IMG/VR virus record: IMGVR_UViG_3300021433_000004
Span: 1-61,396 of that record
DNA length: 61,396 nt
Direction: 5' to 3' (one strand)
Source: a virus
Lineage: Duplodnaviria > Caudoviricetes
Part shown: positions 2 through 33,985 of the stretch, one piece after another
Layout: the number at the start of each line of letters is the position of its first letter
Numbering within the stretch: position 1 is the stretch's first letter
Position numbers and translations under genes: made by a program
The notes under the pieces: model-generated
Told to the model about the DNA's origin: nothing
Databases searched by the model: none
What the model saw: only the letters and a program-made list of their open reading frames with translations

Positions 2-148
2 GCGACTTCGGGCTACTACAGCCCTGCCGCGACTTCGGGCGACTCCAGCCCTGCCGCGACTTCGGGCAACTCCAGCCCTGCCGCGACTTCGGGCTACTAC
101 AGCCCTGCCGCGACTTCGGGCGACTCCAGCCCTGCCGCGACTTCGGGC
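2..148 (+). repeat. 27-bp tandem repeat, 5 full units plus a partial (GCGACTTCGGGCNACTMCAGCCCTGCC)
   Basis: Units start at 2, 29, 56, 83, 110, partial at 137. Confidence 0.97.
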
Positions 149-11712: not shown

Positions 11713-11737
11713 GCCATAGCCGCGCACATACCCCTTA

Positions 11738-12052: not shown

Positions 12053-12105
12053 TCCTCCCCCTACTTGCATGACGAAGTGAATCTTGTTCCAGAATCCGAA
12101 CAAGC

Positions 12106-12300
12106 CTAGCTTGTAGGCCGTGTGACCGGAGACTGCAAAGCATGCAAGATGACGCCCCAGATCGCCAGAATGGCCGCCGTGTAAGCCGCATGCGCTGCCG
12201 CAATGGTCTGAATCTGCGGAGTGAGGGCAGTAGCCAGAGCCGCCAGCACGGTTAGAATCGAAGGCCACCATTTCTTGAGCAAAGCTGTGAATTTGTTCAT
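12106..12300 (-). CDS. Putative holin (two TM helices)
   Basis: 64 aa, two hydrophobic segments, AGGAG RBS. Confidence 0.6.
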   Translation of the reverse strand: MNKFTALLKKWWPSILTVLAALATALTPQIQTIAAAHAAYTAAILAIWGVILHALQSPVTRPTS

Positions 12301-12317
12301 TGTTTTCTCCTGTGAAT

Positions 12318-12713
12318 TTAACTGCCAGTGAAAGTAATTGTAAAGGCCGTCAAGGCCCCGGTAGCCGTAGGCGTACCGCTCAAGACACAAGACGTGCCGC
12401 TGGAAGTAAGCGCCAGCCAGCTTGGAAGCGATCCTGCCGCTACAGAGCAGGTTACCGAGGTCTTAGGCCCAATCGTTGCCAAAGTGACGCTGTAGGGCGT
12501 TCCTAATGAGATTGTGGGCAAAGTGCAGGCTGAGAAGGCAGGACTCGGCCCCGGCTGGCAGGAAGTAGTCCCAACCGTGATCGGAGCGAAGCCCCAGACG
12601 GCCGCCGTGAATTGCCCGCTAAGAGTGACCGTCCCTTGCGTTTGGGCATGGGCCTGCGCTTGGGCGAGGCCAGCGAATACGAATACAGCGGCAATGAGTA
12701 GCAGTTTTCTCAT
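12318..12713 (-). CDS. Signal-peptide protein with putative Ig (He_PIG-like) domain
   Basis: MRKLLLIAAVFVFAGLAQA; GSLPSWLAL...LSGTPTATG. Confidence 0.75.
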   Translation of the reverse strand: MRKLLLIAAVFVFAGLAQAQAHAQTQGTVTLSGQFTAAVWGFAPITVGTTSCQPGPSPAFSACTLPTISLGTPYSVTLATIGPKTSVTCSVAAGSLPSWLALTSSGTSCVLSGTPTATGALTAFTITFTGS

Positions 12714-12720
12714 AAATCTC

Positions 12721-15700
12721 CTATTGAAGTACGTCCACGTTCAGCGTGTAATTGCCCACCAGAGAAATATTGGCCCCGATACTCAGGCCATCATCCCCAG
12801 CATTTAAGAGCGGTCCTGAAGTCACCGCAAACTGACTGGCCCAGTTTGAAACCGTTGCCGGAATGGAATTGTTGTAATTCACCATGCCGAGAGATGTTGC
12901 CGCGGCATAGAGCTGGGTATGTCCTCCCGGCCAAGTCTGAGTATTGGCCGAGAATCCATAGACCGCGTTGTAATCCCAGATAGGAGCGTTCCAGCAGGTA
13001 TTGATGACGCAAGATGGAGTATTTCCCGCCCCGGTGCAAGAGCCTGTGCAAGATCCCGAGACACTGTATTTCACGCTCGCACTTAACGGTGCGGGAGTCT
13101 GGAGTACGATGTCAGTATTATCCGTGCAGACTGCAATGATGTAATTGATTGAATTGATGGTGATCTGCGTGCCCTGGCCCCAAATCGTGGTGCAAAGGAA
13201 TTGCCCGCCAGACACCCAAGTCACCGTAGTGCCCGAGCCTGTGACGCTGACGTTGCCTGATACCGTACCCGCTCCGCCCGCATTCCCAATCGGAGGCGTG
13301 GAGTTTCCATTGCCAATGATCGAGTCTTTCCAGACCATTCCGTACTGCCCGGAAGGGTTCGTCTGCGGGCCGCCGGTCAAGAGAATGACGCTCTGGTTCT
13401 GACTCAGCCAATCGTTATGGATGAAGTGGATATTGCCCTGAATGAAATTCGGCGTTGAGCTTGTCGCTCCCGGACTGCCTGACCGGATAGCCTGAGTTTG
13501 CTGTGGCACATTGCTGTAACAGGACACGGCGTTCGCCGTCAGATTCAGATAAACATAAGCACACGTCAGGGTAGGCGATCCCAGTTCCGCGATCACATTG
13601 TCATGGAAGATCATCGTATTGCCCTGATAGGCCGTGCCGCCCGTCGTGGCAATTGCGTTCGAGACTCCAAGCCCTACATTTGTATCTGAAGATCGGTTGT
13701 AGCGATAGATCAAGTTCGTAATCTGGGCGCTGGGTGCGATATTGGATTGATCTTTTGGAGTAACGAGTAACGAGGCTCCAAGCTGGTCTACGGTGTTCCA
13801 TGAGTTCGAGCAGACGTTCCCTTCCATCAAAACGTAGCTGCCATTCTTGAACTCGTTGCAGTTCTTTGTCGTGAACGGAAGTCCTCCAGTAGGCAGAGGA
13901 CCGCCGCCATTGTAGGACGAATCCAGAGGATTTTCGGTCAGAGACGTATACTTCCAGTTTCGGCGAATCTCCCAATTGACCGGGAGATACCCGCCAATGG
14001 TCATATCAATGCTTGAGTCCGTGCAGCCGGCGGGAGGGCATACAATCGCTGAAGAAACTGGGAAGGTAAACGTATCGTTCGTGTTCGTTGTCGTCGTGCA
14101 GCAGGTCACGGTCTGGTTTTGATTGATGCCGTTTGAAACCGAGCCTCCGGGCCAGAGGGTTGAGCCTGCCATGAACTGCGTTGAAGTGCCTGAAGGAATA
14201 CCGCAAGTCACCGCGCAAATTCCAGTGATCAGGGCGCTGATTCCCGGAGTCAAAGTCACCTGAGTTAGAAGAAATCCTTGGCCGCCTCCACCAAACAGGA
14301 AGCCTTGATTCGAGGTGCCGAAGAAGTTGTCTACGAGTTTGTACGTGCCGGAATTTGCGTCCGTATTCGTCTGCACTGCCCCGGAGACACAGTGTTCATC
14401 CGAGGCTTCCCCAATGGTGATGTAGCTTTGCAAGTCCCAGCAGAAAGAATCAATCATGGCGATGTGGTCGGTATCGCCAAGCTGAAGCCCTTTGCTGGTT
14501 TCTGCCCAGGTATCGCCCTGAATCATGATGCGATCGAAGATGATGTTATTCACTCCGTTCTGCATCGAGATCATGATGTCCTGCACCGCGTCATTTCCAA
14601 CCACGCCATTGCAGTTATTGTTCGCGTAAGAGTTGCAAATGTTTGGCGTCGGAGAGCCTACGGCAATCAGTTCGCCGCCAGAAGAAGTGGAAGCCGTGCA
14701 AGAACCCCCAGCCTGGGTGTAGCCAAAGGTGAATGACCCCGTGGTCGCCGTCAGGGAAGTCAGTGTTACCGACCCCGAGCTCATGTTAAAGCTGGTATCC
14801 GTCACGCCTGCCACAAAGACTGTTAAACCAGCGGAGGGAACGGGATTCAGAACCTGGCTGAAGGTGTACGTCCCGGTGACTGCACAGCCCGTGGTTCGGG
14901 AGATCGTAGAGATTGTCCCGCCGCCGATCTTGGCCTGGGCGTAAGTCTCATTGTAGGTAAAGTCCGTATCGTCCACCACCGACGCGACAGTGAAGTTCCC
15001 CGGCCCAAAGTGATACAAAGTCTGGGCTACGGATACTTGGGAAGTGAAAGGCGTTGTCGCTACGATATTCACGCCCGAGGAATTTGAACTCAGACTTTGG
15101 TGTGTACTGGTAATTGAGCCTTGCGTCGTTCCATCGCCAATGCCTACCTGCGAGACACAGTTCGTAGCATTGCAGGTGCGGGAATAAACTCCCGGTGTAG
15201 CCGCTGTGGGTTGCGAGGCAAAGGCCCATGCTCCGCCGTCTCGCGCAAAGTCAATTCCTACGAAGCGGATGTATTGCGCTCCGGTCGTGAGTTTCAATCC
15301 TGCCAATCCGCCCGCTCCGGTTGAGTGCGCCAGTTGGAGAATTGGGACAACCTGCTGACAGCCTGAGTTATGCGAAGGGTAGGTAGGGATATTCGGAGCT
15401 GAGGAAATTCCGGCAAAGCACGGGGTAATCCGAGTGCCTTCTGCTGGGATGGCAGCTAGGTCATCCGTCTCAACCGTAATCCAGTTTCCGGCCGAGCCTG
15501 CTGCTGCCCAGGAGATATTGCAGTTCGTTGCTACTAAAGTGTGCAGGACTTGTAAAGTCTGCCCTGCCGCGATCTGAGTAAATCCTCCGGTCCCGGCGGC
15601 GATGTTGTTGATGTCCGAGCAAGATTGCGCGGTATAAGGGCTGCCAGAAACCATGTATAGCCCTGCCGGAGACGGCGTATTCGCAATGGCTGTGTTCATG

Positions 15701-18531
15701 CACGTCTGCGGGCCTTGCGCTACATCGTCATACCCATTCAAGCCGTTAATGGGCTGATTTGTGGCTGAGCAGTAATAATTGTCTGGCCCAGAGGTTGGCG
15801 GGAAGGAAGTCGTGGGCGAGTTCTCGATGATGAAGTTCCCCGAGCCTGATCCTGTTCCTACCGTGCTACCCGCGGTGAATGAAGCCGTTCCTACCGGGCT
15901 ATCGGTCCAGCCGCTCGCCATGCCAATGGCTTTAATTGTCTCGATAATGCTGACGACAATTGAGCCGGAATACAGCGTTCCATGAGAGCATGACCCGCTG
16001 CCGTTGGAAGTCGGCGTAGTGCCGTCCAGCGTGTAGCACATTGCCAAAGACTGAGCCTGAGAAATTGTTACCGTCTGCGGAGGATATCCGCCTACTGGAG
16101 AGAACGTAGGTGCGGAACCTTGGAAGGTGTAGGTGTAAGAAGTGACCGTACTATCCCCGCTGAGACTGGTTCCCGCAATGATCTTCAGAGTCTTGTTAGT
16201 GGCGATTGAGACGGTCCCGCCGCTAGTGAGAGACGTTCCGGTAGTGCATCCCGTTCCTAAGCCATTTGTGGCTGGAGTCGTGCCGTTCGTGGTGTAGCAC
16301 TGCACTGTAGTCCCTGAGTTCGGGTTGGCGCAGGCAGGAGTCTGCGTAGCTGAATACGTTCCGGTTCCCGGCGTGCAGGATGACGGAGCAACGACAGTAA
16401 ACGATGCGGTGGCCGTGGTGCTGCTATCCGTGACGGTAATGGTGCAGGCCGCGCTACCAACGGTCAAAGTGGCCGTGGCGGCGGTATTCGAGGTGACGGT
16501 CGGCGTTGTGATGGAATCCCCCGAGCAGCTTCCGCCGCTGAGAGTAAAGAGTCCTAAAGCCGTTTCCGTGGTCCAGAGCGTATGCACTCCGGTTAGAGTC
16601 AGGCCGGGCGTTGTGCCAGTGTTCCCGGAAGTCGGAGAGATTGCCAGGGTCGCCGTGGCTACCGTGATCGTCGTAGAGATCGAATCCGTAGTATCGGTGA
16701 TCGTCAGGGTTCCCGTACCCGAGCCAGTGGTGATCTGAAGGGTGTACGAGGTCGAGGAAACATTCGCCTTGCTCGCCAGAGAAGTGCCGCTTACACCCGA
16801 GAGACTGAATGCCGTTGCGCTGGTCCAAGACGTTCCGCTGCCTGTGCAGGTTACGGCTATATTGTTCGAGTGGTGCGCCGGAAGAGTGGTCGGGGAGCAA
16901 GTAAAACTCGCAGGAGCAGCGGTGAATTCATAAGCTCCAGCATCCCATGCTCCGCTACTCGGACGAGCATTGACTGTGATAGCGGGACAGCTAGAAATGA
17001 ATCCGCCGCTCCCAGCAACTTCGGCACAGCCTTTTGGCGTACCGCTGCATAGGTCGTTGGTAAAGTTCCCAGTTCCGCAAGTCGAGGTCAGATTGTTGCC
17101 CGCGCCCACCGTCGCATAAGTGCCGCCGCCATTGCCGGGCGAAAAATCATTGGACAAAAGGTAGTTCTGGGTTGTGGCCGTGCCGGTGGTCATGAATATC
17201 TCGCCACCGTTATCGGTCTGCGTTGTGCTGCACGTGGTCTGACTATTACAGGCTACCCAGTTCGAGATCGACGTGAATCCCACCAAATGATTATTCTCAT
17301 ATGAAGATGAAGACCCACTTGCCCATGTACCTGCATGGGCACCGAGTTTGCATGTGCTATCGATTGTGTTCCCGACAACCGTAACAGTGATGACGGCGCT
17401 TGTATTGCCAGAGTTTGGCTCCAGAAGCATGCAGTTCGGATCAGGAGGGAAGTGTTGGTCGTTCTCGAAGACGTTGTTGAAGAAGAGCATGACTGGAGCC
17501 GCGGGATTCCAGTTCTCGCCTTCATTCACATTTCGCGTGATGTTGTTGTAAGCAACGAACTGAGTACTGTTGCCATCGTGCTCTTCCACGTTGCCGTGTC
17601 GGCAGCAAGGACTACCAAATGCAGGCTCCGAAAGAAATTCTAAAAGGTTGTCATGAATCAGCGGGACGTTCCCGACCTGGAGCCCATCCGACAGGTGCCG
17701 GAAGACGTTGTGGTCGATGCTCGCCCAATTCCCGCCCATGGCCCAGCCCGTAGCGCACGTCCCTGGAACTGTGTTAGTGCCATTCCAGCAGGCCGCAATG
17801 CAGGATGATGTAGTGCAGGCTGCGCCGAGAGAAGAATCTTGACCATCAATTACGTTCAGGGTCGCAACATCGCTCGGAGGCGTGGATGAATCACTACTGT
17901 TGAGCATGATCCTGCGATCATCTTGCGCTCCAGTAGCCAAGGTCCATCCGTGGATATACAGATTTGAGAGGATGCGGTGGTTGCCTCCGCTCGTTAGACT
18001 GATGAACTCCACGAAGGATTGCGTAGTCTGACAGTCTCCCGTGAACTCGAAATTGTCGAAGGTGACATAACTGCCAGTGATTGAGAGATAGACAATGGAA
18101 TCATCTGCAAAAGAGCAACTAGAGACCGTCGCCGTACTTAGCGGATTATTGCCGTTGATGATTGGGCGGCACCAGGACGCTCCGCAGACCGAGGAATTGT
18201 CCCACGTTAAATCCACTCCGATGTAAATCACATTGCCACTTGATCCGCTGCGCGTGAAACTCCACGTCCCAATTTGGGGTGAACCCGAGGACTCATTCCA
18301 AGTATCGCCTCCTCTAAAGATGAGCGAATCTCCGGCGTTGATCGTGGTTGATGATGCGAGGCCGGTAGCAGTACTCATTCCCGGAGCGTGCAGCCATGTC
18401 GCGGTTTTACTCGTCCCGGCATTTGAATCCGAGGCATTGCAAGGCGATCCGGTGGCAGCGCACACATAGTATGTCGTCGCGTAAAGTGGCGCTCCCGCCA
18501 GTAGCGCGACAATGAATAGGAGTGTTTTCAT
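12721..18531 (-). CDS. 1936-aa signal-peptide adhesin/depolymerase-like protein (beta-helix, Ig-like and Fn3-associated modules)
   Basis: MKTLLFIVALLAGAPLYA-TTYYV...SDSNAGTS; GAWDAGAYE; YTLDGTTPT-type modules; Asn/Thr/Gly-rich beta-helix-like regions. Confidence 0.8.
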   Translation of the reverse strand: MKTLLFIVALLAGAPLYATTYYVCAATGSPCNASDSNAGTSKTATWLHAPGMSTATGLASSTTINAGDSLIFRGGDTWNESSGSPQIGTWSFTRSGSSGNVIYIGVDLTWDNSSVCGASWCRPIINGNNPLSTATVSSCSFADDSIVYLSITGSYVTFDNFEFTGDCQTTQSFVEFISLTSGGNHRILSNLYIHGWTLATGAQDDRRIMLNSSDSSTPPSDVATLNVIDGQDSSLGAACTTSSCIAACWNGTNTVPGTCATGWAMGGNWASIDHNVFRHLSDGLQVGNVPLIHDNLLEFLSEPAFGSPCCRHGNVEEHDGNSTQFVAYNNITRNVNEGENWNPAAPVMLFFNNVFENDQHFPPDPNCMLLEPNSGNTSAVITVTVVGNTIDSTCKLGAHAGTWASGSSSSYENNHLVGFTSISNWVACNSQTTCSTTQTDNGGEIFMTTGTATTQNYLLSNDFSPGNGGGTYATVGAGNNLTSTCGTGNFTNDLCSGTPKGCAEVAGSGGFISSCPAITVNARPSSGAWDAGAYEFTAAPASFTCSPTTLPAHHSNNIAVTCTGSGTSWTSATAFSLSGVSGTSLASKANVSSTSYTLQITTGSGTGTLTITDTTDSISTTITVATATLAISPTSGNTGTTPGLTLTGVHTLWTTETALGLFTLSGGSCSGDSITTPTVTSNTAATATLTVGSAACTITVTDSSTTATASFTVVAPSSCTPGTGTYSATQTPACANPNSGTTVQCYTTNGTTPATNGLGTGCTTGTSLTSGGTVSIATNKTLKIIAGTSLSGDSTVTSYTYTFQGSAPTFSPVGGYPPQTVTISQAQSLAMCYTLDGTTPTSNGSGSCSHGTLYSGSIVVSIIETIKAIGMASGWTDSPVGTASFTAGSTVGTGSGSGNFIIENSPTTSFPPTSGPDNYYCSATNQPINGLNGYDDVAQGPQTCMNTAIANTPSPAGLYMVSGSPYTAQSCSDINNIAAGTGGFTQIAAGQTLQVLHTLVATNCNISWAAAGSAGNWITVETDDLAAIPAEGTRITPCFAGISSAPNIPTYPSHNSGCQQVVPILQLAHSTGAGGLAGLKLTTGAQYIRFVGIDFARDGGAWAFASQPTAATPGVYSRTCNATNCVSQVGIGDGTTQGSITSTHQSLSSNSSGVNIVATTPFTSQVSVAQTLYHFGPGNFTVASVVDDTDFTYNETYAQAKIGGGTISTISRTTGCAVTGTYTFSQVLNPVPSAGLTVFVAGVTDTSFNMSSGSVTLTSLTATTGSFTFGYTQAGGSCTASTSSGGELIAVGSPTPNICNSYANNNCNGVVGNDAVQDIMISMQNGVNNIIFDRIMIQGDTWAETSKGLQLGDTDHIAMIDSFCWDLQSYITIGEASDEHCVSGAVQTNTDANSGTYKLVDNFFGTSNQGFLFGGGGQGFLLTQVTLTPGISALITGICAVTCGIPSGTSTQFMAGSTLWPGGSVSNGINQNQTVTCCTTTTNTNDTFTFPVSSAIVCPPAGCTDSSIDMTIGGYLPVNWEIRRNWKYTSLTENPLDSSYNGGGPLPTGGLPFTTKNCNEFKNGSYVLMEGNVCSNSWNTVDQLGASLLVTPKDQSNIAPSAQITNLIYRYNRSSDTNVGLGVSNAIATTGGTAYQGNTMIFHDNVIAELGSPTLTCAYVYLNLTANAVSCYSNVPQQTQAIRSGSPGATSSTPNFIQGNIHFIHNDWLSQNQSVILLTGGPQTNPSGQYGMVWKDSIIGNGNSTPPIGNAGGAGTVSGNVSVTGSGTTVTWVSGGQFLCTTIWGQGTQITINSINYIIAVCTDNTDIVLQTPAPLSASVKYSVSGSCTGSCTGAGNTPSCVINTCWNAPIWDYNAVYGFSANTQTWPGGHTQLYAAATSLGMVNYNNSIPATVSNWASQFAVTSGPLLNAGDDGLSIGANISLVGNYTLNVDVLQ

Positions 18532-19280
18532 TACAAGACCGACGTATTGGGCAAGACCGTAGTTTTTGGAATAACCGTAGCACTTGGAGGTTGCGGCGCG
18601 GCGAAGAATGAAACGGTGTATCCGGTGATTGCCATGCCGGTAGTTATGTTTAGTACTGGCGTATAAGTTGTCGCCGTAGTCACTGATTGATATTCCACTG
18701 CGCCGCTCTGGTTCCCTCCGCTGGCCTGTCCATTGGTCGAGATCGCGTATCCAGTTCCCGCCGTAAACGTATTGTTCGTGGCACCATTCCCGCCGGACGT
18801 GAGCACGAGGTCACCGGCTGCTGTCGTAGTAACCGCAGGCATGGTGCAGGCCGTGCAGCTTGCGATTGAATTGTTGAATGCCCCGACATCGAATGCCGAG
18901 GTTGTCTTTACTCCGGAAAATTCCTGCCCTAGACACACGCAAAAGGTAGTTCCACCCGTGAAGGTCACAGTCGTTGTCACTGTTCCCCCCGCGATGTTTG
19001 TGGCGTAACAATAGAACACGGCATTCGCGGCATGGAGCGTGATGTAGGTATTCGTGCCGTCCGTGCAGGCAACTGTGACCGCCCCGCTGCTGCTGTTATA
19101 TTCCGCGCCAATGATCACAAGTAGGTCGCCTGCCGTCGTGGTGCCGCAGGACACCGTGAGCGACGCCACGTTGCTGCCTTGATTGTTCGGCGTGCAATCT
19201 TTTCGGAAGGCAATTGAGGCGTGCGCGGAGGAAGGCACACAGGCGATTACAAGTAGGGATAACCAGAGGAGTTTCTTCAT
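18531..19280 (-). CDS. Signal-peptide beta-sandwich protein
   Basis: MKKLLWLSLLVIACVPSSAHA; twice TTAGDLL/TAAGDLV; TAATG coupling on both sides. Confidence 0.8.
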   Translation of the reverse strand: MKKLLWLSLLVIACVPSSAHASIAFRKDCTPNNQGSNVASLTVSCGTTTAGDLLVIIGAEYNSSSGAVTVACTDGTNTYITLHAANAVFYCYATNIAGGTVTTTVTFTGGTTFCVCLGQEFSGVKTTSAFDVGAFNNSIASCTACTMPAVTTTAAGDLVLTSGGNGATNNTFTAGTGYAISTNGQASGGNQSGAVEYQSVTTATTYTPVLNITTGMAITGYTVSFFAAPQPPSATVIPKTTVLPNTSVL

Positions 19281-22200
19281 TACTGGAGCCTCGTCACTGC
19301 TGCACTAAGGGCGTAGGTCGCAGTTCCTGTGTTGCATTGAGAAAAGGTCGTTGCATACTGCACAATAGTTCCGTTTGTGTCGATGTTAAGGTCACCGCTG
19401 GCCCAAGCTCCCAGCGTGGTCGCGCCCCAAAGCATCGTGCCACTTGAGGCAAATCCGGTAAGACTCGCATTGACGGCTGATCCACCAGCTATAATGGGAA
19501 CCGTTTGTGCCGAGTGCGCCGTTCCATTTCCGTCCGTCCAGGTCAGCGAGAAGAGAACGCCGCCAGTAGTGTTAGCAGTGCAGGCCGTTCCTGACTGATA
19601 AATAGCGATATGAACGTGGTATGTCCCAGCCGTATTACAGGCACCAGCCGAGGCCGCGCAAAGCGTTGCCGTGCTCACGCTGGCTACTAGCCCGGTAGAT
19701 CGGATGGCCCCTGGCTGTGCGCGGACCATCGTGCCGTAACTCGTACTGCCGTTCGTCGCAGCCTTCCATTCATGCGAAGTACTGTCGGGGTAAAGGTTCG
19801 ACGTGCCAGAAACGTTTGTAGCCGACGTGCCTTCTGTGGCGCACAACCCACCAGCCGAGCCGAAACTTGTGCAATTCGCCGCGCCAAGCGTTGCCGAACC
19901 TGCCGCAGCAAAGTTCCCCGACGCTCCGAAGCCAAACTCTTTCGTCGCTCCTGAAGTTGAGAACACTCCGTTCGTGAAAGTGCCGAGAGTATAGAAGTCC
20001 GCCAGATCGCCAGCCGCTACCGTCTCGTTCAGGATCAGGGGAACTTGGCCCGTTCCGCCTGCACCTGTGGTGTTAATTCCCAATGCGCCAGAAGTTGTCG
20101 TTGTCGTGTTGGCGTTGGTGAAGACATAAGGATAAGTCAGATTCGCAGTCTCGACGCCTGCCCGAGTCACTTCATGCCCAGTCCCGGTTTCCGTGATTGT
20201 GGTCTGCGCTGCTGATCCCGTGAGTAGACTTTCCGCAAGAGAAACACCTGCCAGCACCCCGCCCGAACTCAAAGTTGCCGTCGCGTCTGGAGTCTGCGAA
20301 GCCTGAGAGCCGCCGCCTGTCATTAGGGCCGTAGAAGTCAAAGATGCTGCGCTGGTCACGCACGTACCGCAGGCAATCGTTCCTGTAGATGTGATCGTCC
20401 CGCCCGTGATCGGCGAGGTTGTGGCAATACTGGTTACTCCTCCGCTACTGGCCGTCTGCGGATTCTGTAGTTGCCATTCCGTGCCATCATAGATCGCATC
20501 AGCGATTGCCGTAGTCGTTAAGTCATTCGCAACCAAGGCCGTAGTTCCCAGCTTGGTGATGCTCTTGGCCGTCAAGCCATTGACTGCGAGCGTTGGGGCC
20601 GCAGCCGTATTCGCCGCCGTGGGGAGCCAGCGTACTTCCACACCAGCGGTCAGGGCTGTGACTGCCGGCGTCAGGGTAGCAGTTTGCGCCTGCGCCGTTC
20701 CCGCGCCAGCTACATAGAAATTCGGGCTGGTGTCCGAGGCTCCAATTAATGCTGCGGCCGGGGCTGCTGTAGAGCCAGTATTATTTCCCCAAAACTGATG
20801 CGCGGTGAAATTGCTGACGATGGTTGAACTGGCATTCAGGACGCAGCCTTCATCGGTAGTCTGAAATATCACATCGAAGCAGTGATTCGTTGCATTCGCG
20901 TACCAGCCATCAGTTCCCGAGGCTCCCGTATAGGCTGTGCCTTCCGCCGCGTCCGATCCGCCAGCCGTTCCTACCGTGGGAGCCGGGGCGGAGGACCCAA
21001 AGAATCCCGTCCCGAGCTGAGTGCTGTTTCCGGCCTTGTCTACCTTCCATTGCGATGTGCCGCCAATCTGCAAATCCTCTAACAGCGATCCAGCGCCCGA
21101 GGCAGTATTGGTGACGTTCTCTAAAATGCCAGCATCGACCGCGCCTGTAGTGTTCCAAACGGGAGTGATCTTTAATGCAGGCAAAGTCTGTGAGCCTGTC
21201 AGAGAGTCAGAAACCAGTAAAGGAACTGCCGTTGATCCCGCTAAGGTGCTGGCAGCTACTTCCACGTCAGAAGTTCCCGTCGCGGCGCTGGTCTCGCCGA
21301 AGGTCATGGCCGTCTGCGAGTTCGTAGTATTGGCGAAATTCATCGTCCATGTATTGTTTCCGTTCGCCAATGTTGTATTCGAGACAAGGGCCGTTACCGA
21401 ACTCAAGGCCGGAGTAGAAGATGCACACGTTCCGCCATTGCACTCGGTAGCATTGATACCGCCAGAACCGATAGCCTGAAGTAAGCCTCCTGTGGTCATC
21501 TGCACGCCATTGGCTGTGCCCCTCGAAGTAATCTGAATCGGGAGGGCAGTAGAGCTAGCTAGCGTTTGCACATTGAATTCAATGTCTCCCGTGCCCGTCG
21601 CGGCCGTAGTTTCTCCAAACGTAAATGCGCTCTGCGAGTTCGTAGTCTGTGCCCAGTTCCAGACTTGCGGGTTATTCCCGTTTGCCAAAGTGTTTGAGGC
21701 GCTAGCCGCCGTCAGGGATGAAAGCGATCCGCCCCCGCTTTGCGCTACGCAATCGCTAGCCTGGGGAGTAAAGACGAAGTTCGCCGTATTGCAGCCCGTC
21801 AAACCTTGAACGAGTGTTGCAACCTGCGATGCGGTCGTTGCAATCAATTGCCGCGAGGAATTAGACCCCAGAAGTCCGGTAGAGGCTGGCACTGCCGCAG
21901 TATTGATCTGATCGGCGCTGACGTGTCCTGTCCCGCTGGCCTTGAAGACACTTCCCGAAGTGAGTACTACGCCATCAACAAGGTTTGTACCTGAATCCGG
22001 TACACCTGCGGTGAAGATCGAAGTCGAGTTCGATTCGCACTTTTCGATGTCAAGATACCCGGCGTTTGGGTTTGTCCCGTAAGTGGTATTCAGGGCAACC
22101 CAGCCGCAATCACTGATCTGCTTGATTGGCGCAGTCCAAGCTAAAGCTGAGGTTGAGCCTTCATAACTCGCGGCGTAAGGGCTGGTCGCATTGTTGACCG

Positions 22201-23893
22201 GGAACAGTAACGCCAGCGGAGGCTGGGAATATGAGCTCCCTGTCTGCCCGCTCCAAGTCCATTGATTCGTGAATGCACTGGGGATGCTGACCGTACCATT
22301 GCCGCCTGCCGTCGAGAAGCCGTTGCCGAACTGCACGGAAGTCGTGCTCGAGCATCCTGCCGTAACCGAAGTGTTATTCCAAGTCAGCGAAGTAGAGCAG
22401 TTTGGCAGAGTGACGGTCTTGAAGACTCCCGCCGTAGAGCCTACGATGATTTGGTTCGCTGCAATCGCCGTCGTGGTTCCTGATCCCGCGCCCGGTATCG
22501 CAGCAATCTGGCCCCAGCCAGCATTCGCTACATCATCATAGAAATTCCCATCCCCGGATACTGCCATGCCTGAATTCCCCGAACCCGTAGCCGCAGGAGT
22601 GCCGGAGCCGGCGATTGGCACGGTAGTCAAATAATAGGGGCCTGTCAGGGTGAACTTTGAGGCAGTGATGCCACCCGAGGGCGTATACGTCAGCGTCGTG
22701 CCATTATCAGAGAGGTTCGGGCTGAAAGCACAATTCCCGGAATTGTTTGTATAAAGAAAATTGCCAATGCTCGGGGCTAGCCAGGTTAAGGAGCTTCCGC
22801 CTGAGCCTACACATGGCACCTGCCCTGCGCCAGCAGACGAATTATTCAGATTCGTAAGAGGCAGCACGAAAGAAGGATTGATGGAGGCAATGATTGCGCC
22901 CGTCGTCGGAGAAATTGTCAGCGAAGTATCGCTATTGGAAACTGAAGTCACTGCCCCATTCGGACAGCCAGAGGTCGTAGCTCCTCCGTTCGCATCCGTG
23001 CAAAGGTTCGAACCCGTGCCTGAAATCGTGCCCGAAGAAAGTAGGTTCGTATCTGTGCCCTGAATAGCCTTGGAGGAGGTTACCGTAGAAGCCGTGGCGG
23101 CAATCGGCACTTGTCCAGTAGTCATGCCAGATAGTCCGCTGCCGCCTCCTCCACTGCCGCAATCCGCGCCCGTAGCGCTGAGAACGCCGGAGGTCTCATG
23201 CACACAGAACGGACCTCCGGTCATGTTTGTAGTCAGGTTCCCAGTAAACGAGCCTGTAGTAAAGAAGCCCGCAGCCGGGGTAGTCCCGCCAATAGTAGGC
23301 GGAGTAGCATAGTTTTGCGTGGCGAAGGTTCCAAATGCCGTGTCATTGGTTTTGGTGCAGGTAACTACGCCGCTCGTCGTATTGATCGTGCAATCGCCTG
23401 AAGGAGTGAAGGCTCCGAAGACTGAACCGGCATTGGTCTGAATCTGTCCCGCCGAGCCTCCGGGGTTATTCGTCCCCCCTCCCCCTCCCCCTCCTCCAAA
23501 GCGTGCAGCAAGGTTTGAAGCAGTCAGCTTTACGACCGCGGTGTTTGTGACCGTATTGCCGCACAGCCGAAACAGCGTAGCGCTGGTGACAAACGATTGA
23601 TAGGTATTGTTGGATGTAATCGTGGCTTGTGATGTGGTTGAGCCGTATGGCGTTACCGTCGTATTCTGCGGGGCATCGCCGCCAATCGCTACTTCGGGCT
23701 GAATCGTCCCGGACCATGCCGATCCGCTGGCGGAATTAGTGATGGAGATACCGACTACACCCTTCCCGGTCACATCGATTTCAACGCAGCCAGAGGCGGT
23801 AATCGTTCCCGTAACTGGAACCGAAGTCTGCGCTCGCGCCATGCCTGCAAAGGCGAGAAGCACAAGAGCAAGTGCCTTTCTGTTTAGATTCAT
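19280..23893 (-). CDS. 1537-aa signal-peptide tail-fibre-like protein
   Basis: MNLNRKALALVLLAFAGMARA-Q; Gly linkers; phage fibre module ANTAAAPTLAVNGLTAKSI...YDGTEWQLQNP. Confidence 0.8.
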   Translation of the reverse strand: MNLNRKALALVLLAFAGMARAQTSVPVTGTITASGCVEIDVTGKGVVGISITNSASGSAWSGTIQPEVAIGGDAPQNTTVTPYGSTTSQATITSNNTYQSFVTSATLFRLCGNTVTNTAVVKLTASNLAARFGGGGGGGGTNNPGGSAGQIQTNAGSVFGAFTPSGDCTINTTSGVVTCTKTNDTAFGTFATQNYATPPTIGGTTPAAGFFTTGSFTGNLTTNMTGGPFCVHETSGVLSATGADCGSGGGGSGLSGMTTGQVPIAATASTVTSSKAIQGTDTNLLSSGTISGTGSNLCTDANGGATTSGCPNGAVTSVSNSDTSLTISPTTGAIIASINPSFVLPLTNLNNSSAGAGQVPCVGSGGSSLTWLAPSIGNFLYTNNSGNCAFSPNLSDNGTTLTYTPSGGITASKFTLTGPYYLTTVPIAGSGTPAATGSGNSGMAVSGDGNFYDDVANAGWGQIAAIPGAGSGTTTAIAANQIIVGSTAGVFKTVTLPNCSTSLTWNNTSVTAGCSSTTSVQFGNGFSTAGGNGTVSIPSAFTNQWTWSGQTGSSYSQPPLALLFPVNNATSPYAASYEGSTSALAWTAPIKQISDCGWVALNTTYGTNPNAGYLDIEKCESNSTSIFTAGVPDSGTNLVDGVVLTSGSVFKASGTGHVSADQINTAAVPASTGLLGSNSSRQLIATTASQVATLVQGLTGCNTANFVFTPQASDCVAQSGGGSLSSLTAASASNTLANGNNPQVWNWAQTTNSQSAFTFGETTAATGTGDIEFNVQTLASSTALPIQITSRGTANGVQMTTGGLLQAIGSGGINATECNGGTCASSTPALSSVTALVSNTTLANGNNTWTMNFANTTNSQTAMTFGETSAATGTSDVEVAASTLAGSTAVPLLVSDSLTGSQTLPALKITPVWNTTGAVDAGILENVTNTASGAGSLLEDLQIGGTSQWKVDKAGNSTQLGTGFFGSSAPAPTVGTAGGSDAAEGTAYTGASGTDGWYANATNHCFDVIFQTTDEGCVLNASSTIVSNFTAHQFWGNNTGSTAAPAAALIGASDTSPNFYVAGAGTAQAQTATLTPAVTALTAGVEVRWLPTAANTAAAPTLAVNGLTAKSITKLGTTALVANDLTTTAIADAIYDGTEWQLQNPQTASSGGVTSIATTSPITGGTITSTGTIACGTCVTSAASLTSTALMTGGGSQASQTPDATATLSSGGVLAGVSLAESLLTGSAAQTTITETGTGHEVTRAGVETANLTYPYVFTNANTTTTTSGALGINTTGAGGTGQVPLILNETVAAGDLADFYTLGTFTNGVFSTSGATKEFGFGASGNFAAAGSATLGAANCTSFGSAGGLCATEGTSATNVSGTSNLYPDSTSHEWKAATNGSTSYGTMVRAQPGAIRSTGLVASVSTATLCAASAGACNTAGTYHVHIAIYQSGTACTANTTGGVLFSLTWTDGNGTAHSAQTVPIIAGGSAVNASLTGFASSGTMLWGATTLGAWASGDLNIDTNGTIVQYATTFSQCNTGTATYALSAAVTRLQ

Positions 23894-23903
23894 TGAGTGT
23901 CCT

Positions 23904-26900
23904 TTACGGTACTGCGATGGCCGACCAAGTATTGCTCGGGTAACATACGTACAAAACCGTCGAAGCTGAAGATGCGGAACTGTTCGAGTCCAAATCGCCT
24001 ATATTGCAATTGGCTGTAGGAACTCCAGCCGTTTGGGAGAGTGTCATGCCATTGATCGTTACCGGCTGAGTGCTGCTGTAAGTCAAATTCCCCGCCCGGA
24101 GATTGGCCCAAGTGCCACCGGAGATATTGGTGCTCGCAAGGCCAGGATAGCCAGACGTCAGACTGCTATCAGTTCCCGTTAGCGTGAAGCCTTGGGTAAT
24201 GTCCATTGCCGTGATGCTGCTTCCGCTGATCTCCAAGAGCAGATAGTCATTGATGGCACACGGAGTTCCGCCCGATGTGATCGCCGTCGGAGCGCCAGCA
24301 ACATATTTGTAGATCACGCTGGAAGATGCGGCGAGACACAGGAAAAAGTAGCCAGTCTCTGCCGAATTTGACATGCGAACGCCAATGCCGGTGTCAATTG
24401 ATCCCAAAGCGGTAATCTGGGCAACGATATACTGGCTATTGGCGAACGTTGAATTCGTGTAACTGCAGAAGACTTTATTGTCACTGCCGACTGCCAGCAC
24501 CGCAGAACCGCCTGAGATATTGCATGCGGCCCCCGATCCGCCATTCGTAGTCCAGCCTGTAGCCGAGCCAAGAACATTGCTGACTTGCGTACCTGAAAGA
24601 GTGAATGGAAAAGCCACGCCAGCGGTATTTCCTAGAACGGTAAGGTTATTGAAATCCGTGATCGGCGTTTGAAAGAATTTCCCCGCCGAAGTCAGCCGCT
24701 CGCCCCAAGACTTGTTATCGCCCGTATTGGCGATATATTGCGAGATCGCTCCCGGAGCTCCGATGCTCAATTGGGCATTACCCGCGCTGGTTCCTGCTGG
24801 TGAATCAAAGCCCAGATAGACATCGTTCGCATCCCATAAAGGCCTGTGCGCGGCGTTCGCAATTGTCTTGTATGGATTTGAGTCGTGCAAGGTAACGAGA
24901 TGCTGCGGATAAAGTGCCTGCTCGAATCCGAGAAAGTTCAAGCGTCCTTTTAGCTGATCTCCGAGAGGCTGCGTTATAGACTGGCTATTCGGCATCAAGG
25001 TCGCTCCCGAAGCCAATCCGATTGTCTGCCCTCCAGCGGCGAAGCTCATATTGGAAGCCCCAATTGCCACGCCCGGAGTGGGCTGATCCTCATTCAGGGC
25101 AAAGACTTCTAATTGGTTTGGCAGGGTAGTCACATATCCTGCAGCCGTCGATCCCGCTGGCAGGCCGCTATCCGAATACATCAAAGCCCCGCCCCCTAAA
25201 ACAGCCGTGCCGGGGAAGTTCCATAACTCTGGGATTAGGGCTGGATTCGTAGCGACGGTATAGGACTGCAAGGTCGTCGTCGTTGAATCGTTCATCGTGC
25301 AGATATAGGCCGAGCACTGCGCGATGGGCGATGAGGTTAAAGCATTTGTAGCCGTGCCGAATGGGGCCGTTGGCTGCTGGCCTACTGTATTTGAAGTTCT
25401 AAGTACCTGATATGTGACTGTACTCCCTGTCTGGGAAGCATATCGAGGCCAGCCAATAGCATAAGACGCGCTAGAGGTAGGCTGGGCATCGCCAAACCGC
25501 AGAGGCACAGAAGCATTCGATCCGTCATTAATAACGAGCCAGTATTCGTAGTTCGTTGTTCCGCCCGCAGCATTTGAAAAGTTTGGCTCAAAACCCTGCA
25601 AGGAAGGCGAATGTCCATCGGCGGTCTTCGTTAGATAAAGCGGTGCGCTGAATTGCTCCGCACCGGCCGCGCTGATCGAAGACAAGTTCCCAGTAGGAAA
25701 TCCGGCCGCGATCATGAAGGGGTTGTAACACCCTCCGACTTCCTCATAGAGCCCGTCCAGCATCGTAGGCCCGGAAGATCCCCGCAGCGGCCCTGCCGCC
25801 AAACCATACTGGGCAAATCCTTGAATCACCGAGAACCCGGTCATCACCAAACCTTGCCCTGCCAGCCATTTCACGCCATTGCCGAAGCAATTGATGGTCA
25901 TCGAAACATGGCTCAGCGTCCCAAGAGGCGTTCCTGCCGGGCCGCCAGGTCCGTAAAGCACTTGCCCGCAATAATCTGGTCCGCAGTAGGTGCCACCATC
26001 AATATCGCCATTGTCCCAAAGGAAATTCTGATCCCCATCGACAACGATGACGGAATTTAGGAAGTTATGCCCTGCGAATGTCGAGAAATCATAGTAGAAG
26101 TCTCGCAGGGTAACGGAGAAGCCATTGTCCTCAAGAAAGGCATGCTCTGGAGCATTGCCGCCCGGCGTTGAGGCCGTAGCAATGGTTCCCGCTCCCGGCG
26201 TTCCCCCATGCGTGCAATTGTTATCCGTAAACGTCCATTGCGAACTGGAAGAGGTTGCCACCTGATAGATGCCCCAGTAGTGCGGGTTATCGGTCCATTG
26301 AATATCTACCCACCCGCCTACCGGAGGATTCAAGGTCGTCGTGATCGTAGAGACATTGGCCGAGCAGGAAGTCTGCGTAATGGAGGCACCGCTCTGCGTC
26401 GTCTTCGTGAAGGCCCGGATGCCATGAAACACTACATTCGCGGCATTCGTGAAAAAGCACGTATCCCAAATCGCTTCGCAGTCAATCATTGCCCCGGAAA
26501 CGTCGATATCGGCATAGCCTTGCGGAACGTTCACGCGACCGCGAATGACATAAGGCGTTGTTGATGCCGGATTGGATGGCGGAAATACAACATGATACAG
26601 AACACCTACCGCGCCCGTGCCGTTAGTAGCCGCATCCGTGATCGTTTCTTGAATGCCCGAGGAAGCACTCCCAATCGCATAGCCGTTATTGTGCGTGTTC
26701 AGGGGCGTGAAAGTGATCGTGCCCGTTGACCCAGGGACACAGCTTCCTCCGCCGGTCATTTGCACAACTTCCGGCGTGCCTACCCCGAAGATATAGACAT
26801 TTGTTGTCGAGTCACTGCCGAAGATTCCTAATGGACATGGTGCTAGAGTCACCGTTGCGGGCGTGTTCGCTACCAGCCCGCCCGTAGGATTGCGCGACCA

Positions 26901-27515
26901 GTTATAGCTGGGCAAAACGTAGCGAATGTTTGCCAGATTGTTTGCCGAGAAGCTGGTTGCTACGGGCTGCACGATGGGCTGCGTCGCCGAAGGCCCCAGA
27001 GAGACATTCCCCGTTCCTGTCCCGCAGGAAGGGCAGCCAAAGGTATTTCCTGTGAGCGTTAATGGCGAGGCTGCGGTGTAAGTCTGACCGCCTCCGCCAG
27101 TCCCTCCCGGAGTGATCGTAAAAGGTGAGTCCCCGCAGTTATTCTGCACACAGACAGTCAGATCATATGTCCCGGAAGGAATCCAAAACCCTATATTGCC
27201 CTGATTGTCGCCCGTAGGCTGGCAGGCCGAGGGCTGGGGCTGCGGAGTGTCCTGCGAACCATTAGGGCATGCTACGCCGAGCGACGTGTATGTGGTCACG
27301 TAGTTCGTGCAAGGAACCTGATTGGCTGGATGTGCGCACACATGCACGATCGGCGCATTGGGCGGAACATTTGCCACCAGCACTGGAGGATAGGAACTCG
27401 ATACGCTGGGCCAGGAGATATCGACGCGCACATTCTGGGCAAAGGCCGAAATAGCCAGAACGTGCCATACGACCAAAATCAGGGCTGTAGTATAGTGCCT
27501 TCGGAGGAATACCAT
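23904..27515 (-). CDS. ~1200-aa signal-peptide tailspike-like protein
   Basis: Likely start ATG 27515, hydrophobic leader ending SAFA-Q; N-terminal DNQGNIGFWIPSGTYD head-binding-like segment; beta-helix-like middle; lectin-like C-terminus. Confidence 0.75.
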   Translation of the reverse strand: MVFLRRHYTTALILVVWHVLAISAFAQNVRVDISWPSVSSSYPPVLVANVPPNAPIVHVCAHPANQVPCTNYVTTYTSLGVACPNGSQDTPQPQPSACQPTGDNQGNIGFWIPSGTYDLTVCVQNNCGDSPFTITPGGTGGGGQTYTAASPLTLTGNTFGCPSCGTGTGNVSLGPSATQPIVQPVATSFSANNLANIRYVLPSYNWSRNPTGGLVANTPATVTLAPCPLGIFGSDSTTNVYIFGVGTPEVVQMTGGGSCVPGSTGTITFTPLNTHNNGYAIGSASSGIQETITDAATNGTGAVGVLYHVVFPPSNPASTTPYVIRGRVNVPQGYADIDVSGAMIDCEAIWDTCFFTNAANVVFHGIRAFTKTTQSGASITQTSCSANVSTITTTLNPPVGGWVDIQWTDNPHYWGIYQVATSSSSQWTFTDNNCTHGGTPGAGTIATASTPGGNAPEHAFLEDNGFSVTLRDFYYDFSTFAGHNFLNSVIVVDGDQNFLWDNGDIDGGTYCGPDYCGQVLYGPGGPAGTPLGTLSHVSMTINCFGNGVKWLAGQGLVMTGFSVIQGFAQYGLAAGPLRGSSGPTMLDGLYEEVGGCYNPFMIAAGFPTGNLSSISAAGAEQFSAPLYLTKTADGHSPSLQGFEPNFSNAAGGTTNYEYWLVINDGSNASVPLRFGDAQPTSSASYAIGWPRYASQTGSTVTYQVLRTSNTVGQQPTAPFGTATNALTSSPIAQCSAYICTMNDSTTTTLQSYTVATNPALIPELWNFPGTAVLGGGALMYSDSGLPAGSTAAGYVTTLPNQLEVFALNEDQPTPGVAIGASNMSFAAGGQTIGLASGATLMPNSQSITQPLGDQLKGRLNFLGFEQALYPQHLVTLHDSNPYKTIANAAHRPLWDANDVYLGFDSPAGTSAGNAQLSIGAPGAISQYIANTGDNKSWGERLTSAGKFFQTPITDFNNLTVLGNTAGVAFPFTLSGTQVSNVLGSATGWTTNGGSGAACNISGGSAVLAVGSDNKVFCSYTNSTFANSQYIVAQITALGSIDTGIGVRMSNSAETGYFFLCLAASSSVIYKYVAGAPTAITSGGTPCAINDYLLLEISGSSITAMDITQGFTLTGTDSSLTSGYPGLASTNISGGTWANLRAGNLTYSSTQPVTINGMTLSQTAGVPTANCNIGDLDSNSSASSASTVLYVCYPSNTWSAIAVP

Positions 27516-27804
27516 GAAAACCTTAGTTTTGATTCTGGCGCAATTGGCGGCCAGTGGAAGTGATGCGTACTTCACAGACCGAAACATGCATCAGAGGCAG
27601 TTCGTTGAATATGATCCCATTGCCAAACCGTTCACTCACAGCCGCCCTGCTTTCATTGCCGCATCTTCGTTCGGATGCGGAGTAGAAATCGTGATGCCGC
27701 GCCTGCTGCACAAGCGCAATCCGCGATTATCTTTGCTGATGTCAGGCACGGGTATAGCCGCTAGTGGTTTCGGAGCCATCACAAGCGCAGATCGCACTCG
27801 TTAA
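27514..27804 (+). CDS. Antisense small membrane protein (DUF5658-like)
   Basis: GGAGG at 27503-27507; DAYFT...EYDPIAKPF; hydrophobic segments; exactly fills the intergenic gap. Confidence 0.65.
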   Translation: MKTLVLILAQLAASGSDAYFTDRNMHQRQFVEYDPIAKPFTHSRPAFIAASSFGCGVEIVMPRLLHKRNPRLSLLMSGTGIAASGFGAITSADRTR

Positions 27805-29168
27805 TGGAAATTGCAGACGTAATACCATGTGTAGGTCGTCGTATTTGCCAGCGCAGAAGATGTGGATAATGTCCAAATTGTGCCTGTAGCTCCCGTGACG
27901 TAAATATCGGCTGCTAATGCCGCCGTCGTCGCTCCGTTCGGGGCGAATACGCAGGCATTTGAATTGTGCGTCCCCCCGAAAGTAACGGTAAAGATTAGGC
28001 CGGAGGTAGCACTGCCTCCAGTCGTTACCTGAATGACTCCGTTATTATCGAAGCAAGCCCCTACTGAGACACAAGCGGCCGTTCCCCCGGCTCCCGTTGC
28101 CGCCCCTGGGACTACCGAGGCGATCGCGGTATATCCTAAAAGCGAAGGTGGGGTTTGCGGCCTGAATTCAGGGCCGAATAGATCGACGGGCTCTGGTCCA
28201 ATGCCGCTTGCCATGACGATCCCGAGAACTTGTCCGCCTCCCGTTCCTGAAGTAGTCGAGAGAGGGTACGTTGCTCCCGCATCTTGGCACCAGCCAGCAA
28301 CGGAGGTATTGATAGTTACATAATCGCCTGCCGTCGTGCCCCCGCCAAAGGTGCAGGACGCAGGCCCGCTTTGCTGAATCGTGGCCGTACCGGTAATCCC
28401 AGCCCCGGCTACTACGATCCCTATAACTCCGCTCGTAGCGCCAGCGGGAGTGATTGTTGCCGTAGAGGGTGCACCCGTGAGACTTGCCAAAGCTCCGAGT
28501 ACAGTAGCTGTCACAGAATTATTGGCGATGCAAGCGTAGGTTCCCGGCCCGTTCTCTACGCCGCAGCCATTTATTTCCGTACCGCTCGTAAGATTCTTGT
28601 TGGTAAGATTCTGCGTTGCATTCTGGGTAACCAGTGTGTCATTGCCCGTGAGCGGTGGAGTATGCAGGATGTAATTTGCCGATTGCGGAATGACATCCAA
28701 AGTAGTCTGTGTACCCGAAGGCGATCCGAATACCAATTGGGAATCGGTTTCTGCAAAGAAAGTTTGGGCATCAAAGGTCTGCGATAACAGCCATGTATTT
28801 GCCGTGCCGAGAAGCGATTCATTCACTGCATTGACAGTCAGAATTGTTTGCCCGCTGGAGCAGTTTGTCCCGCCAGAAGTCTTTACGACGATGGAATACA
28901 GAGCGTTATTGAGATACCAGATATTCGCCGTTCCGCTGGCACTCAAAGGCACCGGATTTGGGTTTAGAATTGATCCAGTGTAGTCAGTGTATGTAGGCTG
29001 CGGCGTCGTCGAGTTCGTGTTATACGTGAATACACAGCCAAAAGAGTTAGGCTGGCCGTTCGGCAGCAGAGACACGAACTGCGGATACTGACCTAAGGCA
29101 ACACTCTGTGAGTGCGCGAAGCTCGCCGCGAACAAAAGTAGCGCAAAGATTGGAAGCCGTTTGTTCAT
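27801..29168 (-). CDS. Signal-peptide tail fibre/spike with podovirus head-binding-like N-domain
   Basis: MNKRLPIFALLLFAASFAHS-Q then NGQPNSFGCVFTY...TYTDYTG...NPNPVPLSASG..IW. Confidence 0.8.
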   Translation of the reverse strand: MNKRLPIFALLLFAASFAHSQSVALGQYPQFVSLLPNGQPNSFGCVFTYNTNSTTPQPTYTDYTGSILNPNPVPLSASGTANIWYLNNALYSIVVKTSGGTNCSSGQTILTVNAVNESLLGTANTWLLSQTFDAQTFFAETDSQLVFGSPSGTQTTLDVIPQSANYILHTPPLTGNDTLVTQNATQNLTNKNLTSGTEINGCGVENGPGTYACIANNSVTATVLGALASLTGAPSTATITPAGATSGVIGIVVAGAGITGTATIQQSGPASCTFGGGTTAGDYVTINTSVAGWCQDAGATYPLSTTSGTGGGQVLGIVMASGIGPEPVDLFGPEFRPQTPPSLLGYTAIASVVPGAATGAGGTAACVSVGACFDNNGVIQVTTGGSATSGLIFTVTFGGTHNSNACVFAPNGATTAALAADIYVTGATGTIWTLSTSSALANTTTYTWYYVCNFH

Positions 29169-33976: not shown

Positions 33977-33985
33977 GGGGATAGT

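Follow-up and report, generated by a model that had tools for sequence, protein, structure and literature searches.

The tailspikes of podophages such as P22 (gp9), Sf6, Pam1, and Pan3 combine a head-binding domain with variable C-terminal parts. To our knowledge, textbook accounts describe the assembly of tailed phages as wholly cytoplasmic, and in P22 attachment of the tailspike is the last step, one that also works in vitro. Virion proteins that carry Sec leaders and are assembled outside the cytoplasm are known from the filamentous phages (pIII, pVIII), and leader-bearing morons occur in or near the tail-fiber regions of lambda (Lom, Bor) and T5 (Llp), where they encode small outer-membrane proteins or lipoproteins and not virion parts. 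Here we analyze IMGVR_UViG_3300021433_000004, a P22-like podophage of soil whose entire record, one contig of 61,396 bases, is referred to below as the window. A module of six consecutive late genes, headed by a tailspike gene of 455 amino acids (aa), encodes proteins that each start with a leader resembling a Sec signal peptide. The best explanation of the sequences appears to be that the whole peripheral apparatus of the virion is encoded as Sec pre-proteins, comprising the tailspike or adaptor, three giant fibers or spikes, small accessory proteins, and a protein encoded directly after the capsid gene (the post-capsid protein).

The window tailspike shares its gene position and a homologous head-binding domain with the P22-type tailspikes, to which it adds a cleavable-looking Sec leader and, inside the domain, a co-varying pair of cysteines (residues 45 and 103). 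Inoviruses are extruded through the membrane without lysis, whereas here the tailed icosahedral core would be cytoplasmic and only add-ons would be exported. Unlike Lom, Bor, and Llp, the window proteins reach a length of 1936 aa, are coupled to late genes, and carry virion-anchor domains. WceF of Pantoea stewartii is likewise a tailspike-like beta-helix with an export signal that acts outside the cytoplasm, although it is chromosomal, has a Tat leader, and shows no sign of a head-binding domain in the available part of the account (PMC7949094), whereas the window proteins are phage encoded and have Sec-type leaders. Similarly, phages of Porphyromonas gingivalis carry predicted signal peptides that copy their host's habit of placing Gln at position +1; in the accessible part of that report these belong to five genes of unknown function (PMC10367356), in contrast to the demonstrable tailspike and whole fiber module found here. 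A literature search, with the supplementary data of PMC10367356 outside its scope, found no paper on Sec leaders of tailed-phage tailspikes or fibers.

Leaders of the late-operon genes

The first-pass annotation of this DNA had described six open reading frames (ORFs), each opening with a basic and hydrophobic leader, and inspection of the translations bears out both the coordinates (minus strand; Table 1) and the leaders. The predicted cuts, marked here by a slash, fall at AHS/Q (455 aa), AFA/Q (1203 aa), ARA/Q (1537 aa), AHA/S (249 aa), LYA/T (1936 aa), and AQA/Q (131 aa). Each leader comprises one to three Lys or Arg residues, approximately 10–13 hydrophobic residues, and small residues at −1 and −3, with Leu at −3 as the exception in the leaders of the 1936-aa protein and of a 213-aa protein encoded elsewhere in the late region. 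These calls were made by inspection and with a crude heuristic script for hydrophobicity and charge. The script flagged 6 of 72 greedily called ORFs, all in the late region (five module genes and the 213-aa gene), and none of the replication or head-core ORFs. It missed the 1203-aa gene and a 303-aa gene, that of the post-capsid protein, only because their ORFs had been called from a position upstream of the real Met. For the former, previously put at about 1200 aa, the leader stands and the start had to be moved: the longest ORF runs from 27587, and the internal Met at 27515, with AAGG upstream, gives 1203 aa. The 213-aa and 303-aa genes, which open with comparable leaders, are additional to the original six.

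In the 455-, 1203-, 1537-, 131-, 213-, and 303-aa genes, a Shine-Dalgarno-like motif lies before the leader ATG, and the 249- and 1936-aa genes start within TAATG overlaps. The overlaps reported earlier are real, both the TAATG at 19280 and 18531 and the ATGA at 29165–29168 that joins the 455-aa gene to the last ejection gene, and the module does lie after the ejection genes, which is the P22 tailspike position. The composition is also as first described, the six module proteins containing 1.8–3.6% Cys and only 2.3–3.7% Lys, Arg, and Glu combined; across all eight leader proteins the ranges are 0.9–3.6% and 2.3–9.4%. Among 14 other structural proteins tabulated, the combined charged fraction is 8.6–27.6% in 13, the exception being the ejection protein ej302 (3.3%), and all three ejection proteins are devoid of Cys. 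At the level of sequence, the leaders can be taken as confirmed, both as real features and as conserved ones.

Two other readings of the leader region were tried and rejected. An internal start after the leader finds no conserved start codon, the conserved Val two residues past the cut being encoded by GTT in the three genes checked. The Tat route was set aside since the three relatives of the 1203-aa leader do not keep its twin arginine.

The tailspike and the leader families

The 455-aa protein has a 20-residue leader (29109–29168, ending FAHS/Q), and its head-binding domain spans approximately residues 29–122 (28803–29084), starting about 8 residues past the predicted cut. A profile built from 33 homologs (A1) matched 7eeq_A, annotated "Tailspike head-binding domain", at E 7.3e-10 (profile positions 36–122, chain positions 14–96) and the tail spike chains of 9vyg and 9vyh at E 2e-7 to 8e-6. 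The AlphaFold (AF2) model has a mean predicted local distance difference test score (pLDDT) of 73.7, with values of about 90 across most of residues 30–110 and dips at 72–80. Comparison of this model with known structures, in line with a check proposed in the first-pass annotation, gave as top Foldseek rows the tailspike N-domains of the cyanophages Pan3 and Pam1 (9vyg_o, E 9.4e-4, TMt 0.56; 9vyg_m; 7eeq_A, E 5e-3, TMt 0.62), followed by the head-binding domains of P22 (2vky; 1lkt, for which 1lkt_A has E 3.4e-2 and TMt 0.58; 8tvr_A) and Sf6 (7sg7_B). These E-values are modest because the domain is small.

All 21 matching records in a collection of phages align at the N-terminal part alone (residues 29–117; 37–176 in one), and the matching genes, where annotated, are tail spikes or fibers. 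The counterparts in Xanthomonas phage PBR31 and Shewanella phage X14 have no leader and open directly with the homologous domain at residue 1, so that the leader of the window protein is an addition of approximately 20 residues before a canonical attachment domain. The 455-aa protein is a true tailspike, homologous to those of the P22 type by profile and by fold, and the presence of a head-binding domain behind the leader is the strongest argument that it is a virion part. The leaderless tail hub, which we take to be of the P22 gp10 type, is the expected docking partner of this domain; a complex prediction of the hub with three copies of the domain, made without controls, scored 0.08 against a mark of 0.32 and was counted neither for nor against. 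The first-pass annotation had seen phage fiber modules in two of the six genes, of which the present analysis verifies only that of the 455-aa gene.

The family comprises 58 homologous cluster representatives, many of them on contigs of 50–66 kb, and a search of viral contigs by peptide patterns found no relative of the 455-aa protein. Leaders are present in 52 of the 58, followed by Gln at +1 in 48 of those 52. The N-terminal module of the 1203-aa protein, a Cys-rich segment of about 115 residues (27096–27437) behind a 26-residue leader (27438–27515, ending SAFA/Q), is far more widespread. A profile of this leader and module (A2), searched against 1.84 billion representatives, recovered 713 clusters at E ≤ 1e-3, of which 442 also pass E ≤ 1e-10. 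Among the best 150 of the 713, the module lies at the N-terminus in 148, in proteins of 118–2036 aa, and the heuristic found a leader in 142, with Gln at +1 in 135 of these; three of the remaining eight visibly have leaders and the others resemble truncated gene calls. The post-capsid family is well conserved (124 proteins at E ≤ 0.001) and has leaders in 116 of the best 120 and in 44 of 44 aligned members, 112 of the 116 leaders ending in small residues at −1 and −3 before Gln at +1.

A survey of related phages, as had been suggested, found the leader pattern in homologs of these three leader proteins and in a relative of 61,440 bases (G001) that is rated 100% complete and has the same layout as the window. 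There, leaders open the 490-, 123-, 558-, 1117-, 1729-, 217-, and 103-aa genes and the post-capsid gene. In comparisons of the window with G001 and two further contigs, the N-terminal parts are conserved and the remainder does not align: identity is 49% over 347 aligned positions between the 455- and 490-aa proteins, 50–57% over approximately 125 residues for the 1203-aa type, and 42% over 79 residues between the 1537- and 558-aa proteins, the conserved part of the 1537-aa protein being residues 36–111. Phage receptor-binding proteins typically keep their N-terminal anchor while exchanging their C-termini, and the sequences of the large leader proteins support this pattern. The shape of the leader is retained across the three families while its sequence drifts. 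Judged from these sequences, the leader pattern is a property of a lineage that includes the window phage and hundreds of relatives.

Leader genes were also seen on more distant contigs. On a P22-like contig from an Acidobacteria bin (L015), the ejection genes are preceded by the gene of a leader-bearing fiber with the same head-binding motif and followed by that of another leader protein (10001–11410 and 16553–18010). A 38-kb viral contig that is otherwise unrelated (L033) has four consecutive leader genes at 10253–14432 (300, ∼366, ∼451, and 178 aa), the first of which has the Cys-paired beta domain also seen in the 455-aa family.

Cysteines occur in even numbers in the mature forms of all eight window leader proteins (10, 26, 28, 8, 60, 4, 2, and 8) and all eight G001 leader proteins (12, 0, 8, 28, 42, 6, 0, and 8), and in odd numbers in 4 of the 10 leaderless window proteins that contain Cys. 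Across the 33 aligned sequences of the 455-aa family, co-occurrence sorts the ten cysteines into five pairs: 45–103 (both present in 29 sequences, one in 0, neither in 4), 202–213 (24, 1, and 8), 272–294 (30, 0, and 3), 366–372 (6, 0, and 27), and 406–452 (19, 1, and 13). The first of these lies inside the head-binding domain and is absent in the leaderless homologs of the cultured phages PBR31 and X14. In the post-capsid family, six cysteines are invariant or nearly so, and there is an additional pair, 56–93, with both present in 11 of the 44 aligned sequences, one in 0, and neither in 33. Parity in 16 proteins together with paired gain and loss would be hard to explain without disulfides; on this ground we argue for disulfide bonding and hence for folding outside the cytoplasm.

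The leaders also resemble those of a candidate host group. In an Acidobacteria metagenome-assembled genome (MAG; G006) that encodes a related leader-bearing fiber, 15 of 15 ORFs examined with a CarboxypepD_reg domain (TonB-receptor type) have leaders ending in [AG]/Q, a style that the phage leaders share. This habit resembles the preference for Gln at +1 known from Bacteroidetes, which is described in a report whose available part does not mention Acidobacteria (PMC5837995). A search of the Acidobacteria MAG for a Glu_cyclase_2 gene found none, which is uninformative as the genome is incomplete. The host is probably a member of the Acidobacteriota.

The post-capsid protein was modeled at a pLDDT of 86.9. 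Foldseek gave no match at E ≤ 1e-3, and a sequence search of the PDB returned one chance-level row. VIA-align paired its N-domain with domains from the baseplate of phage JBD30 (Z 10.3), the capsid of phage VP1 (9in6_M, Z 9.8, residues 28–120), and the tail tip of phage Chi (Z 8.4), and its C-terminal jelly roll with C1q/TNF folds, PBSX XepA (Z 8.2), and the cement proteins 7eel_H, 3j4u_H, and 7dou_4 (Z 6.7–6.9). Z values of this size are common, and the protein is a candidate at most: it may be a capsid decoration or head-fiber protein that is also exported.

Proposed export, folding, and attachment

We propose that the leader-bearing proteins are exported by Sec, fold with disulfides in the periplasm, and attach to particles when lysis merges the compartments, a reading to which we would give slightly better than even chances. 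The late operon would be translated, in part through coupling with the ejection genes, and the leaders would direct the add-on proteins through SecYEG, after which signal peptidase would cleave behind the small-x-small motif, in most cases exposing Gln. In the periplasm, the exported proteins would fold, trimerize, and form disulfides, and in the cytoplasm spikeless, DNA-filled particles would be built from leaderless proteins (portal, capsid, hub, and ejection proteins). Holin lesions or lysis would then merge the compartments and bring particles and exported proteins together, docking of the head-binding domain on the tail hub being the final assembly step. We infer the export, the cleavage, the disulfides, and the time and place of attachment. 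The broader proposition, which we hold tentatively and rate a little short of even, is that a large clade of soil podophages makes two-compartment virions, with a cytoplasmic core and with every exposed add-on (the tailspike, branched fibers, and probably a capsid decoration protein) exported by Sec and docked only at lysis; the exported parts would gain disulfides, and perhaps an N-terminal pyroglutamate, in the periplasm. The first-pass interpretation, in which receptor-binding proteins are exported, disulfide bonded, and joined to particles at or after lysis, is as a whole partly supported. Its suggestion that the module proteins are perhaps glycosylated turned up no evidence in the analyses made here.

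Several points weigh against the proposal of export and late attachment. We know of no tailed phage in which exported proteins join particles made in the cytoplasm, none having come to light here. Attachment would need to be rapid or else occur where space is confined, and the periplasm would need room for very long trimers. The leader calls come from the eye and a crude script, and even cysteine counts among homologs are not independent observations. The fold matches of the post-capsid protein are middling and of a common jelly-roll kind (Z 6.7–10.3), and its capsid role is not established. The 1936-aa protein has no recognizable anchor domain, is matched by its G001 counterpart at 31% over only about 190 residues, and might be secreted as a free enzyme instead of belonging to the virion. 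Links to a host consist of one fiber homolog in an Acidobacteria bin and one portal homolog in a delta-proteobacterium bin, the latter on a short MAG contig with that label, which is too little to assign a host. Two soil RNA libraries contain contigs that overlap parts of the module, among them 23672–24036 across the start of the 1537-aa gene; these cannot prove transcription, DNA carry-over being possible, and gaps in their coverage carry no information.

The exported proteins could instead act on the envelope or matrix of the producing cell by destroying receptors, degrading exopolysaccharide for release, or blocking superinfection, in which case most leader proteins would not be virion parts and adsorption would proceed via one of them or the needle. 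The 1936-aa protein, with a beta-helix-like region immediately behind its leader and carbohydrate-enzyme-associated domains, is the best candidate for such a role. Bacteria do export tailspike-like enzymes, as WceF via Tat illustrates (PMC7949094, available part), and the leader proteins of P. gingivalis phages that follow the Gln rule, although of unknown function, are read by their authors as host-surface modifiers in the part of the paper available (PMC10367356). We nevertheless consider this account unlikely for the module as a whole. The only known role of the head-binding domain of the 455-aa protein is tail attachment, the 1203-aa N-module occurs before unrelated C-termini across its 713 clusters in the manner of a virion anchor, and the leader genes are translationally coupled to the ejection genes. 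Moreover, promoter-like and terminator-like sites within the module do not exceed shuffled expectation (10 against 12.3 and 18 against 16.7, respectively), and lysogenic conversion appears to lack a basis, as no integrase was found among the window ORFs scanned, some small ORFs being outside the scan. A virion role and an envelope or matrix role could coexist.

Export might also stop at the membrane, with uncleaved leaders serving as signal anchors that keep the fibers at the periplasmic surface of the inner membrane up to the moment of holin triggering, as a means of staging or timing assembly. Signal-arrest-release endolysins are staged through uncleaved N-terminal segments, an analogy that lends this idea some appeal, and the lipobox-like leaders of the 249-aa protein and of the 103-aa protein of G001 make tethering of some proteins plausible. 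As a general explanation it seems to us quite improbable, given that in all three families nearly every leader closes with small residues at −1 and −3 ahead of a conserved Gln, as expected of signal peptidase I sites (48/52, 112/116, and 135/142), that the hydrophobic regions are short (∼10–13 residues), and that the head-binding domain starts only about 8 residues past the predicted cut, so that a helix left in place would lie at its docking end. Still less credible is the suggestion that the leaders are not used for export, so that the proteins fold in the cytoplasm, the default of all characterized tailed phages, by means of a downstream start or with a hydrophobic N-terminus that aids trimerization or tail binding. 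The leader ATGs have ribosome-binding motifs or stop/start overlaps, whereas no conserved start codon follows the leader in the three genes with the GTT Val codon; the leader shape is kept in three families despite drift and matches the leaders of the 15 CarboxypepD_reg ORFs of the Acidobacteria MAG; and the paired cysteines suit an oxidizing compartment.

If export with attachment at lysis is correct, it would add a step to phage morphogenesis and give tailed phages, here an abundant soil lineage, an assembly route not described before. It would also offer an explanation for disulfide-stabilized outer virion parts, which possibly aid persistence in soil, and the exported spikes could also strip receptors or matrix from the producing cell before release. 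Annotation would change as well, as leader-bearing carbohydrate-active genes of soil phages are often read as metabolic or host modifying. Fibers of this kind would probably misfold when expressed in a reducing cytoplasm. Modules combining leader and anchor, one of them found in 713 clusters, would provide handles for the receptor-binding proteins of uncultured phages of the Acidobacteria type.

Genome layout and neighboring genes

Both ends of the contig (1–229 and 61104–61386) lie inside the same 27-nucleotide (nt) tandem-repeat array, probably an assembly break within a repeat of a circular or permuted genome. Since the contig is the whole record and ends in one array, the window is most likely a complete circular or permuted phage genome. 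The late genes lie on the minus strand in P22 order, from terminase through portal, scaffold, capsid, and hub to ejection proteins (phrog_51, 2, 156, 8865, 283, 578, and 598; Table 1), and the ejection region encodes two further large leaderless proteins of 609 and 527 aa. The hub is 65–76% identical in nine viral contigs, one of them G001; no prophage relative of it was found in genome contigs, and the head genes had no nucleotide match in the phage collection. Other scanned ORFs are replication, recombination, methylase, unknown early, head, or ejection genes; no tape-measure-like ORF appears in the window ORF list, and no tRNA was seen in the window.

Table 1. Positions of the late genes and leader-bearing genes in the window.
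Feature	Coordinates	Strand	Remarks
Small terminase	49327-50013	-	
Large terminase	47991-49475	-	
Portal	42525-44831	-	
Scaffold	41419-42528	-	
Major capsid protein	40155-41396	-	
Post-capsid protein, 303 aa	39224-40135	-	Leader; directly downstream of major capsid gene; two beta domains, C-terminal C1q/TNF-like jelly roll
Tail hub	34996-36528	-	No leader; phrog_578, head closure Hc3
Ejection protein	32577-33485	-	phrog_598
Last ejection-type gene, 527 aa	29165-30748	-	No leader; 0 Cys; TGA stop overlaps next ATG
Tailspike or adaptor, 455 aa	27801-29168	-	Leader, P22-type head-binding domain, then Cys-paired beta domains
Fiber or spike, 1203 aa	23904-27515	-	Leader and Cys-rich N-module; variable C-terminal part
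Gly/Ser/Thr-rich fiber protein, 1537 aa	19280-23893	-	Leader (ending MARA/Q); 28 Cys
249-aa protein	18531-19280	-	Leader AHA/S or lipobox VIAC; start in TAATG overlap with 1537-aa gene
1936-aa protein	12721-18531	-	Leader LYA/T; 60 Cys; start in TAATG overlap
131-aa protein	12318-12713	-	Leader; He_PIG Ig-like domain (61-129); 4 Cys
Tlde1/YkuD-fold protein (L,D-transpeptidase-like), 128 aa	10459-10845	-	No leader; candidate lysis-region cell-wall enzyme
213-aa protein	9821-10462	-	Leader LLA/Q; Lys-rich C-terminus; far end of candidate lysis region

Pfam and PHROGs returned nothing for five of the six module proteins, bar He_PIG in the 131-aa protein and an Fn3_assoc/CHB_HEX_C domain at residues 815–884 of the 1936-aa protein. 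The 1936-aa protein, with its beta-helix-like region, is likely to be a polysaccharide-acting spike or a free enzyme. Neither profile A2 nor the sequences of the 1936-, 1203-, and 1537-aa proteins found a match in the PDB. A protein atlas offered only leads below 0.9, to Verrucomicrobiota, Acidobacteriota, and pectate-lyase-like clusters, and for the C-terminal part of the 1203-aa protein there is a pectate-lyase-like lead only. The 249-aa protein matched no family in Pfam or PHROGs and may be a lipoprotein because its leader also fits the lipobox V-I-A-C. No leaderless receptor-binding candidate was found among the other window ORFs scanned.

The candidate lysis region (9821–12271) encodes the leaderless Tlde1/YkuD-fold protein and several membrane proteins, a make-up that would fit a holin that opens the inner membrane. 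The Tlde1/YkuD-fold protein is 50% identical to its G001 counterpart by tblastn and 49% by blastp, is the sole enzyme-like gene product of the region, and is a possible, if unusual, endolysin. The 213-aa leader protein beside it gave no family match.

An HNH endonuclease (phrog_374, E 3e-47) and an acetyltransferase (phrog_1249) are encoded on the minus strand at 33482–34480, between the hub and needle region and the ejection genes. In G001 (L008, 3605–3847), an 80-aa ORF with a leader-like start, which may be spurious, lies between the portal and scaffold genes. Finally, a 24-nt unit is repeated in six tandem copies at 58541–58732 of the window, within or beside the ORF at 58149–58907; these repeats could be iterons or an origin.

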